This document shows, one piece after another, positions 9,694 through 13,039 of a stretch of DNA of 13,175 nt (within the stretch, counting starts at the first letter, position 1; every line of letters starts with the position of its first letter). Source of the stretch: Candidatus Krumholzibacteriia bacterium (lineage in GTDB: Bacteria > Krumholzibacteriota > Krumholzibacteriia > WVZY01); the NCBI GenBank assembly GCA_036478295.1, contig JAZGDW010000299.1, positions 1 through 13,175 on the forward strand. Reading direction: 5' to 3'. The position numbers were made by a program, and so were the translations under genes. The notes below the pieces were generated by a model. The model did not search any database. It was not told the origin of the DNA and worked only from the letters and a program-made list of their open reading frames with translations.

Positions 9694-9724
9694 TTGACAA
9701 ATTAATGACTTAGGGCTAATTTTG
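9694..9724 (+). promoter_or_regulatory. Housekeeping-sigma promoter of the str (rpsL) operon
   Basis: Perfect TTGACA at 9694-9699, a 17-nt spacer, then TAATTT at 9717-9722, which keeps the conserved T-A---T positions. It sits in an AT-rich island of an otherwise GC-rich window. An A/T tract AAAAGATTTTT at 9667-9677 is at UP-element distance. Confidence 0.8.
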
Positions 9725-9801
9725 AGTTTCGTTTGCTCTAGTCAATCTTGCCTGGAAGCATTCCGGCCTTTACATAGATAAACAGAGCTAATCCGTTGAT
9801 A

Positions 9802-9839
9802 AATTTGCAGTTGTGGAGTTTGTCCACAATCTGCAAGTT
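9802..9839 (+). other. Strong stem-loop in the rpsL 5' leader
   Basis: AATTTGCAGTTGTGGA (9802-9817) pairs with TCCACAA-T-CTGCAAGTT (9823-9839): 16 pairs including one G-U, a single bulge at T9830, and loop GTTTG. No U-tract follows. Confidence 0.7.
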
Positions 9840-10263: not shown

Positions 10264-10734
10264 ATGTCAAGACGAAGAGTTCAAAAGAAGCGGGTAATCA
10301 CACCCGATGTGAAATACGGGGACCAGGTGCTGGCGCGGTTTATCAATTACGTCATGCGCAAGGGCAAGAGATCGGTCGCCGAGAGCATCGTGTACGATTG
10401 TTTTGAAATTATCGAGAAGAAAACCGGGCAAAAGGGCCTCGAAGTCTTCAAGAAGGCCCTTGAGAACGTAAGACCGACTCTGGAAGTGTCTTCGAGGAGA
10501 GTCGGAGGTGCGACGTACCAGGTGCCCATCGAGGTGCGGGCCGACCGACGCTTGGCACTGGCCATGCGCTGGATAACGAGTTTCGCAAAGGGCCGCTCCG
10601 AGAAGACGATGTCGGAACGGCTGGCGAACGAGCTGATGATGGCGGCGCGGCGCGAAGGCCCTTCCATGAAGAAGAAGGAAGACACGCACCGGATGGCGGA
10701 GGCGAACAAGGCATTCGCCCACTTCAGGTGGTAG
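10264..10734 (+). CDS. rpsG: 30S ribosomal protein uS7 (156 aa)
   Basis: Start MSRRR, motifs [20 protein letters not shown] and [16 protein letters not shown]. Lies 13 nt after the rpsL stop. Confidence 0.98.
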
Positions 10735-10873
10735 CGCTGGCATGACGGCGCGGCACCACATAGAGATTGTGAAACAAGCACATAGGGCTTAACGCTACAG
10801 AGGTTCGCAATCCAGAATTCAGCAGCGTTTGTGCGAGGGTGGTCATTCCACCCTGACCTTATGTATCACGAAC

Positions 10874-10933
10874 TCCCCCGGTAACTCTCTGACCATTCGA
10901 GTGCGAGCTCGACCGGTTGGAGACCCGGGCGGG
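10874..10933 (+). other. Long GNRA-capped stem-loop immediately upstream of the fusA ribosome-binding region
   Basis: TCGAGT-GCGA-GCTCGA (10897-10912) is extended by TCTCTGACC/GGTTGGAGA (10886-10894/10915-10923), CCCGG/CCGGG (10877-10881/10925-10929) and TCC/GGG. Confidence 0.7.
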
Positions 10934-10945
10934 CAAAGGCAGAAA

Positions 10946-13039
10946 ATGGCCAGATTGGTCCCATTAGCAAGAGTCCGGAATATCGGCATCATGGCTCACA
11001 TCGATGCCGGTAAGACAACGGTGACGGAGCGCGTCCTGTACTACACGGGCCGTACCCACCGCATGGGCGAAGTGCATGATGGAGCGGCGACGATGGATTG
11101 GATGGAGCAGGAGAAGGAGCGGGGCATCACCATCACCTCCGCCGCGACCACGTGTTTCTGGAACGACCATCGTATCAATATCATCGACACGCCGGGACAT
11201 GTCGACTTTACCGTCGAGGTGGAGCGAAGCCTGCGGGTGCTGGATGGTGCGGTGGCGATCTTCTGTTCCGTCGGCGGAGTCGAGCCGCAGTCGGAGACGG
11301 TATGGCGCCAGGCGGACAAGTACGGAGTCCCGCGAATTGCATTTGTGAACAAAATGGACCGCATGGGGTCCGATTTTTTAAACGTCGTCTCCATGATGAA
11401 AGACCGGCTGGGCGCAAACGCCGTTCCCATTCAATTGCCGATTGGGGACGGCGATATGTTTACGGGCATTATCGATCTGGTGAAGATGAGGGCGTACTTC
11501 TACAAGCGCGAAGATCTCGGAGCGACCCCGGAGGAGCAGGAAATCCCGGAGGACCTGCTGGAGATGGCCCAAGAGTATCGTGAGGGTCTGCTAGAGAGCC
11601 TGGCTGAGTTCGACGATGATCTCATGGAGGAATTCCTGAGCCATGGTGATGCGAGCAACGAACAGATTATGGGCGCGTTGCGCAAGGCCGTACTCAGTGG
11701 CGAATTCGTGCCGGTGCTGTGCGGGGCTGCGTTCAAGAACAAGGGCGTGCAGAAACTCCTCGACGCCGTGGTTGATTACCTCCCGGCGCCTTGCGATGTC
11801 CCACCGGTAGTTGGTGTCAACCCCTATACGACCAAGGAAGAGATACGTAAGGTCGACGACGACGAGCCATTCTCGGCCCTGGTATTCAAGATCATGACAG
11901 ACCAGCACATCGGCAAATTGACCTACATCCGGGTTTACAGCGGCGTGGCGAAGAAGGGCACCATGATCTTGAATGTAGCGACCGGTAGCAAGGAGAGGAT
12001 CGGACGCCTGGTGCAGATGCACGCCAACAAGCAGGAAGTCCGTGAGGCGATTTATTCTGGCGACATCGCCGCGGTGGTGGGGTTGAAGAAGGCAAGCACC
12101 GGCCACACCATTTGCGATATCAAGCATCCCATCGTCCTCGAACAGATGCATTTTCCAGAACCCGTCATGTCCGTTGCCATCGAACCGAAAACCAAAGCCG
12201 ACCAGGAAAAACTCTCCTCCGCGCTGGTGAAGCTGAGCGATGAGGACCCCACGTTTCAAGTCCGGGGGGATGAAGAGACAGGACAGACGATTATTTCCGG
12301 GATGGGCGAACTCCACTTGGAGATTCTCGTCGAACGCATGCTGCGCGAATTCAAGGTCGAAGCGAGCGTCGGAAAGCCCCAGGTCGCCTACAAGGAATCG
12401 ATTACGGCCACCGCGCGGGTGGAGGGAAAGTTCATCAAGCAAACCGGTGGTCACGGTCAGTACGGCCACGTTGAGATTATTGTTGAGCGCAACGAGAAGG
12501 GTGACGAGTTCGTTTTCGAAAACAACATCGTCGGTGGCGCGATACCGCGGGAGTTCATTCCTTCAGTGGAGCGGGGGATTTTGGACGCCATGTCGGGTGG
12601 CGTCGTCGCCGGTTATCCGGTCATCGGTATCAAGGTACAGCTGGTCGACGGCTCGTTCCACGACGTCGATTCGAGCGAAGTGGCCTTTCGCATGGCGGCC
12701 TCCATCGCCTTCAAGGAAGCGATGAAGAAGGCGGAGCCGGTCATTCTCGAGCCGACGATGGACGTCGAGGTGGTGGTACCGGAGCAGTACATGGGCGATG
12801 TGATGGGTGATTTGAATATGAGGCGTGGAAAGATCGGAGGAATGTTCCCGCGGGGCGACGTTCAAGTGATAGGCGCGCGGGTTCCGCTGGCCCAAATGTT
12901 TGGATACGTGAATCGGCTCCGGTCATTGACGCAAGGCAGGGCCGTTTACACGATGCAGTTCTCGAAATACGAAGAGCTTCCCCAAAGCATCGCCGAGGAA
13001 CTGGTCAACAGGTTTCAAGGAAAAGCCGTCCGGAGCTAA
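10946..13039 (+). CDS. fusA: Translation elongation factor G (697 aa from ATG 10946)
   Basis: Motifs [54 protein letters not shown] and [11 protein letters not shown]. The typical EF-G N-terminus MAR..RNIGI begins at ATG 10946, with weak SD AAAGG at 10935-10939. The 39 upstream codons in the track ORF do not resemble EF-G. Confidence 0.98.

Follow-up and report, generated by a model that had tools for sequence, protein, structure and literature searches.

A conserved structured RNA, absent from Rfam, in the rpsG-fusA spacer of an order of Candidatus Krumholzibacteriia

The 211-nt spacer between rpsG and fusA of a Candidatus Krumholzibacteriia bacterium (assembly GCA_036478295.1, contig JAZGDW010000299.1) holds a real, conserved structured cis-element, which is found at the level of the order and is absent from Rfam. 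The window, i.e., the whole analysed stretch of 13,175 nucleotides, contains ORFs in the order rplA-rplJ-rplL-rpoB-rpoC-rpsL-rpsG-fusA-tuf; these gene names are the ones we take from the translations. The spacer size given in an earlier note on this DNA agrees with the gene ends (rpsG ends at 10734 and the ATG of fusA starts at 10946), and all the sequences quoted in that note were found at the positions given for them. The spacer and its neighbours include the following features.

10264..10734, + strand: rpsG (uS7), the upstream gene, an ORF with homologs in 54 of the 61 genomes
10735..10945, + strand: rpsG-fusA spacer with the conserved structured RNA, 211 nt; the covariance-model match covers 10764-10945
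10758..10864, + strand: outer helix ACAUAG/UUAUGU, which closes domain 1, seen in this genus only
10774..10832, + strand: family helix P1, consensus CACAAAC/GUUUGUG, no two-sided covariation; in this copy most likely ACAAGC (10774-10779) with GUUUGU (10827-10832)
enclosed by P1, + strand: P2, GGGU/AUCC, degenerate in this copy
inside P1, + strand: conserved inner segment with an invariant GC at 10807-10808
10836..10854, + strand: hairpin P3, consensus GGUGC-loop-GCACC, here GGGUGG/CCACCC
10874..10933, + strand: domain 2, a stacked irregular hairpin with a variable apical loop, common to most genera of the order; helices CCC/GGG, CGGUC/GACCG, asymmetric internal loop, UGACC/GGUCG, AUCGAGC/GCUCGAU
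10935..10939, + strand: AAAGG, a weak Shine-Dalgarno-like motif that follows domain 2 immediately on its 3′ side, anti-SD duplex of −6.3 kcal/mol
10946..13039, + strand: fusA (EF-G), ATG at 10946
from 13050, + strand: tuf, after a 10-nt gap containing GGAGGAG

The order was represented by 36 genomes, 30 of them with an rpsG match and 29 with a full spacer, and the spacer was 184–238 nt long in all 29 measurable genomes. In addition, a metagenome scan was conducted with a fusA-anchored pattern that is blind to the spacer. As a result, 13 loci were found, six of which were new homologs with spacers of 207–262 nt, while the remaining ones were duplicates or came from unrelated taxa with spacers of 32–51 nt. 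Exact duplicates, the non-target fusA pattern matches with 32–51 nt spacers (L152, L156, L159, L162, L165 and L166) and G026, whose contig ends at rpsG, were left out. Between genera, the mean pairwise identity of the spacer was 0.65 against 0.53 for shuffled alignments, and the four-fold sites of rpsG showed an identity of 0.37 against 0.65 for the spacer (28 pairs).

One subgroup of 15 spacers, including this copy, shares P1, P2, P3 and domain 2. The alignment of these homologs contained 41 pairs with 88.7% of the cells paired, and 12 of the 41 pairs were changed on both sides; with slid partners, only 35–42% were paired. None of 500 shuffled alignments matched this signal on any of five measures, which should not be read as a p-value, since the structure was derived from the same sequences and the kin are not independent. 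It should be noted that the alignments were made on sequence only and that, in P1, the two members of this genus are probably misaligned by 2 nt. In P3, four of the seven pairs were changed on both sides with 93% of the cells paired, and the P3 of this copy carries a compensatory C-G to G-C change relative to the consensus. In the top of domain 2, two-sided changes were found in six of the 12 pairs, each in a single sequence. Two results are counted against the operator function proposed below: P1 exhibited no two-sided change among the 15 homologs, and the score of domain 2 alone in 22 sequences was reached by 128 of 500 shuffles. With 30 sequences, no shuffle out of 500 reached the score of domain 2 alone and 133 reached its pair types. 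L019 and L161 were excluded from the domain-2 alignment A5, and genus g13 was mostly excluded from alignment A3 and wholly from A5.

Thus, the cis-acting structured RNA under selection put forward in the earlier note is supported by position-specific conservation and covariation in relatives, and not by the G-U pairs and the GNRA loop from which selection had been argued there. The GCGA tetraloop is no sign of selection, because GNRA occurs in only one of 22 homologous domain-2 loops, which is that of this copy.

The + strand of the spacer folded at −77.6 kcal/mol with z = −2.69 (one of 200 shuffles was as good), and the − strand gave z = −0.40 in the shuffle control. The folding score, proposed earlier as a check, therefore separates the + strand, and not the − strand, from its shuffles, but it does not set this spacer apart, since z ≤ −2.6 was also obtained for nine of 60 intergenic regions of similar size that were crudely called in this genome. 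Two parts of the fold drawn in the earlier note were borne out, namely the hairpin at 10836-10854, with a pair probability of at least 0.91, and the domain-2 stem at 10874-10933, all 20 MFE pairs of which had a pair probability of at least 0.9. Its domain 1 was not supported in the single-sequence ensemble: the ACATAG/TTATGT closure and the TTGT/ACAA helix both had p 0.0, GCACA/TGTGC had p 0.1 and AACGCT/AGCGTT had p 0.16, and the domain as a whole lay 7 kcal/mol above the MFE. A counterpart of the outer ACATAG helix is present in the MFE of the congeneric L010, which also folds both P1 and P2. The ACAUAG hexamer is duplicated in this genus, so that two outer helices are possible, and in the MFE the second copy (10780-10785) rivals the first for the same partner. 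The family register of P1 (ACAAGC/GTTTGT) had p 0.0 in this genome and costs 11–14 kcal/mol, which is counted against an operator. For this reason, domain 1 of this copy is a diverged and ambiguous version of the family domain 1.

A profile built with the genus left out (nhmmer) matched 10780-10938 with E 7.8e-17, the sole significant match in this genome. Model R1, covering the whole element, matched 11 of 61 genomes in one place each, always in the rpsG-fusA spacer; two of the 11 lay outside the training set. R1 matched nine of the 12 other family members and one of 23 sister-family genomes, and missed the other three and 22, respectively, domain 1 being different between subgroups of the order. 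Model R2, covering domain 2, matched 11 of the 12 family members and seven of the 23 sister-family genomes, including a weak match in G018 that lies elsewhere than in the spacer. All 17 R2 matches with E < 1e-5 were at the spacer and belonged to training-set genomes, and among held-out genomes G015 was matched at its spacer with E 0.003 and G009 was missed. Nine weak R2 matches in other families (E 0.002–0.05) were treated as chance; L195 and L197 were checked and were not at rpsG-fusA. The other subgroups of the order keep domain 2 and have different 5′ domains. Such an exchange of domain 1 would be odd for one fixed ligand site, and it is also counted against an operator.

A second rpsL-rpsG-fusA set was observed in the assembly (L174, G000:C298:1-2500). 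Its rpsG, with a 36-nt spacer and 60% uS7 identity, was rejected as probable contamination.

The search of Rfam 15, named in the earlier note as a check of novelty, gave no gathering-score match in the window or in 40 related loci; in E-value mode, the window gave only matches with E 4–7, all on the − strand. No tRNA or tmRNA was found in the spacer. The earlier statement that the spacer lacks a tRNA, a credible ORF and a U-tract agrees with our results: no ORF is conserved in the 15 homologs, and the last 100 nt of these homologs contain a maximum of 3–5 T per 8-nt window. An upstream ORF (an AUG and, seven codons further, a UGA in frame) in three of four subgroup-B spacers was considered and dropped, none being common to the 15 homologs. 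The sole terminator-like prediction in the spacer is a 5-pair alternative to P3. A search for conserved switch pairing yielded only short complements among many chance ones and no conserved alternative fold, which is counted against an operator. Promoter-like sites were found in 27 of 27 rpsL upstream regions against one of 35 rpsG-fusA spacers, which makes it probable that the RNA lies within the str transcript. Two RNA runs (5–6% of words, contigs only) gave zero depth at 10800-10919, which is uninformative on expression. A blastn search of rpsG with the spacer against E. coli genomes returned no match, and in the literature searched we found no account of this element or of an EF-G-binding mRNA leader.

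The arrangement of the neighbouring genes is of importance for the function of this RNA. The rpsL-rpsG gap was 12–31 nt in 25 loci, the fusA-tuf gap is 10 nt, the tuf-rpsJ gap was 19 nt in both of the genomes read, and the S10-spc genes are tightly packed. The three short gaps are too small for the operators that E. coli keeps at rpsL-rpsG and tuf-rpsJ, and, apart from this RNA, no stretch of leader size was found before fusA-tuf-S10-spc. In the genome G015, rpsG and rpsJ lie on the same strand at a distance of 3.6 kb; in the assembly of the window, tuf is divided between contigs, and the str-S10 continuity rests on G015. It is likely that the genes under control comprise not only fusA-tuf but also the S10-spc block, a point unremarked in the earlier note. 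In G011 and G012, rpsJ is located far from the str genes, which is counted against an operator. In these two genomes (L175, L176), tuf after fusA is broken by masked runs and abrupt joins; this region may be a rearrangement or a mis-join at duplicated tuf genes.

We suggest, with about even confidence, that the element is a protein-responsive translational operator for fusA-tuf-S10-spc with its basal helix in the fusA initiation region. Every step beyond a conserved structured element is one that we infer. Transcription of the RNA would start at the rpsL promoter. A surplus downstream product, which may be an rRNA-binding r-protein (e.g., uL4 or uS8) or EF-G, would bind to the P1/P2 core, this putative target being conserved but non-covarying. 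The binding would stabilise the fold adjoining the ribosome-binding site and reduce fusA initiation, after which repression would spread downstream via translational coupling. The 3′ end of domain 2 lies 12 nt upstream of the fusA AUG, within the usual 30S footprint, and the helix overlaps SD-like bases in several homologs. Two points are counted against this mechanism: the AAAGG of this copy lies outside the helix, and the SD strength among the homologs ranges from −3.3 to −11.8 kcal/mol.

According to PMC7247131, the r-leaders known so far work through terminators or by sequestering the RBS, do not require rRNA mimicry and bind a product of the genes they regulate; on this last ground, a downstream product (an r-protein or EF-G) is favoured over uS7. 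By analogy, the element may be assigned to the r-leader class with a putative ligand. It exhibits covariation, and its position is always directly before fusA. The S10-operon leader of E. coli (uL4; PMC10931766) is likewise a long structured leader ahead of the S10 block; in contrast to it, this RNA lies two genes upstream of rpsJ, the 19-nt tuf-rpsJ gap having no room for a leader, and has neither an attenuator U-tract nor an Rfam match. A narrower version of the proposed operator, in which surplus EF-G would bind its own leader and throttle fusA-tuf and the whole S10-spc block, seems to us unlikely as a specific assignment.

The main rival explanation, to which we give a limited share of probability, is that domain 2 acts as a site of RNase III-type processing or as a stabilising stem and so parts rpsL-rpsG from the fusA-tuf-S10 mRNA, the two parts then differing in decay. 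RNase III cuts such intercistronic stems, and an RNase III family protein is encoded in the genome. It is consistent with processing that domain 2 is an irregular hairpin of about 60 nt, the stem of which is conserved in sequence while the loop varies freely, and that no other part of the element is shared so widely. However, this explanation leaves the conserved core of domain 1, with its invariant columns, unaccounted for.

A relocated uS7 operator, close to the uS7-responsive element imagined in the earlier note, is doubtful. In this case, surplus uS7 would bind to the RNA, block fusA translation and feed back on rpsL-rpsG only via mRNA destabilisation (retroregulation). The site used in E. 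coli, rpsL-rpsG, is too short here (12–31 nt), and in E. coli, according to PMC10931766, the synthesis of EF-G is repressed by uS7, which also retroregulates rpsL. The operator of E. coli (PMC3616713 and PMC10931766) resembles this RNA as an intercistronic multi-helix RNA of the str mRNA that adjoins a translation start and lies upstream of fusA. It differs in being located between rpsL and rpsG, whereas this RNA comes one gene later, and in its size (96 nt in E. coli, 211 nt here) and fold. Since the RNA is downstream of rpsG, uS7 would have no direct control over how much of it is made. The determinants of the E. coli operator named in PMC3616713 (AGUAA/UGUAA, UGAAN, CCA/UUGGR) are not jointly kept in the 15 homologs: (A/U)GUAA was found in three of 15 and UGAAU in one of 15, and the looser UGAAN and UUGGR in 12 and nine of 15, respectively, both counted without a chance control. 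Model R1 gave no match on the E. coli locus L155.

The uS7 idea also became weaker in the comparison with 16S rRNA. ACAAGC does occur in P1 of the window and the family consensus GCACAAAC resembles 16S GCACAAGC, but the ACAA word is base-paired in P1, and the words ACAAGC and CCCGGGC, likened to 16S in the earlier note, each occur in one of 15 homologs. The rRNA for comparison was taken from G015, as the genome of the window is without rRNA. When 1291 rRNA windows were ranked by their similarity to the spacers, the uS7 sites of the same-order 16S rRNA came at ranks 384–825, and the local alignment of the 15 closest spacers to same-order 16S and 23S rRNA was not above shuffled rRNA (p 0.07–1.0). 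These linear mimicry tests are insensitive, the E. coli operator itself having scored at chance in a related alignment test. The sarcin-ricin loop ranked 356 of 1291. To the eye, the inner segment resembled helix 43 of the GTPase centre, but this helix ranked 244 of 1291 and the resemblance was dropped. The 23S rRNA of G015 (L142, G015:C1:1536461-1540103) is a 3643-nt match against a 2925-position model, with about 700 nt of insertions.

A structural device without a ligand, which would set a fixed rate of fusA initiation or bring the rpsG stop and the fusA start together for coupling, has a small probability in our estimate. A spacer length that stays at about 200 nt while domain 1 is replaced from one subgroup to another would fit such a device, and the unbound S7 operator of E. 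coli was proposed to aid coupling (PMC3616713). On the other hand, invariant bases that are unpaired or do not covary suggest that a partner recognises them, and terminator-like versions at the same junction in related families point to a regulated node. It is highly improbable that the RNA is an independent small RNA freed from the str transcript to act in trans: it is about 180 nt long with a multi-helix fold, but its position is fixed on one strand directly before fusA, a promoter of its own was not found (one of 35 spacers), there is no U-tract after domain 2, and there is no Rfam or tRNA/tmRNA match. Finally, a dispersed repeat or MITE, named in the earlier note as an alternative, or chance folding is refuted by copy number and covariation, since, although a z of −2.7 is reached by nine of 60 other spacers of the genome, no further copies were found there by blastn (next best 20 nt, E 0.1), R1, R2 or nhmmer, and the element is orthologous across at least nine genera with covariation.

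Other families of the class (L124-L139) each have their own conserved rpsG-fusA element in spacers of 103–247 nt, with no Rfam match in the loci scanned. The elements of families f4 and f6 end in terminator-like hairpins followed by 6–7 T in 8 nt. Families f3 and f7 share the motifs GGTCY..., AAGCGCT and GAAT in this spacer, and one Ca. Krumholzibacteriia spacer (L058) has a motif in common with the same-class family f4. In Gemmatimonadota/Longimicrobiales (L047, L049, L051, L054, L065 and L070), the rpsG-fusA spacers are 198–272 nt long with hairpins and then T runs, a pattern that suggests attenuators at this junction there too.

The streptococcal "rpsL-leader" attenuator, proposed to control fusA-tufA, is located at the same rpsG-fusA junction; according to its description (Naville and Gautheret 2010, PMC2965389), leaders of this type have neither sequence nor structure in common between taxa. 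Compared by description only, that attenuator has a predicted terminator with a U-tract, whereas no U-tract follows domain 2 here. The Pelagibacter rpsL motif (Meyer et al. 2009, PMC2704228) is also a candidate structured leader and is occasionally found before rpsG or fusA. It differs in that it mainly precedes rpsL and is confined to Pelagibacter and marine metagenomes, while with R1 no second copy of this RNA was found before rpsL or rpsG.

In genus g13 (L021, L025-L030 and L033-L036), the 5′ part of the spacer contains a hairpin GGUUUGGAAGCGG...CCGCGCGAACC, which is kink-turn-like by eye. Its best rRNA match is at 23S position 2865 of L142 (rank 1 of 1291), presumably in the L1-stalk region. 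This match may be due to chance, as top z values of 4–5 were also obtained in other groups.

It is worth mentioning that the region upstream of rpsL is conserved as well. A sigma-70-like promoter, TTGACA-17-TAATTT, is located at 9694-9722 of the window and is promoter-like in all 27 loci (L010-L038). About 50–60 nt before the rpsL start, TTATCCACA (window 9820-9828) is exact in 23 of 27 loci and has at most one mismatch in 25 of 27, with only 20 exact copies in 3.5 Mb of this genome. We take TTATCCACA to be DnaA-box-like, which suggests a possible DnaA control of the str operon. The rpsL leader (window about 9735-9800) contains complementary segments GCTCTA...AGAGC and CTTGCCTGGAA...CC.GGC conserved across the family; with an identity of 0.71, it is as conserved as the rpsG-fusA spacer and is a second candidate leader RNA.

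The value of the rpsG-fusA element is moderate, as the hosts are uncultured, such leaders are well known and a streptococcal precedent for this junction has been published. Beyond the Gammaproteobacteria and Firmicutes, it is, to our knowledge, not known how most bacteria regulate the str-S10-spc cluster. The sites that usually accommodate an operator (rpsL-rpsG and tuf-rpsJ) are too short in this lineage, which makes this RNA a concrete, alignable candidate for the control point. Whether the different folds at the same junction in related families respond to the same protein is a question for one ligand screen. If the RNA were indeed an EF-G operator, the rpsG-fusA junction would be a widespread, repeatedly reinvented control point for the supply of elongation factors, the fold being different from family to family within the class.
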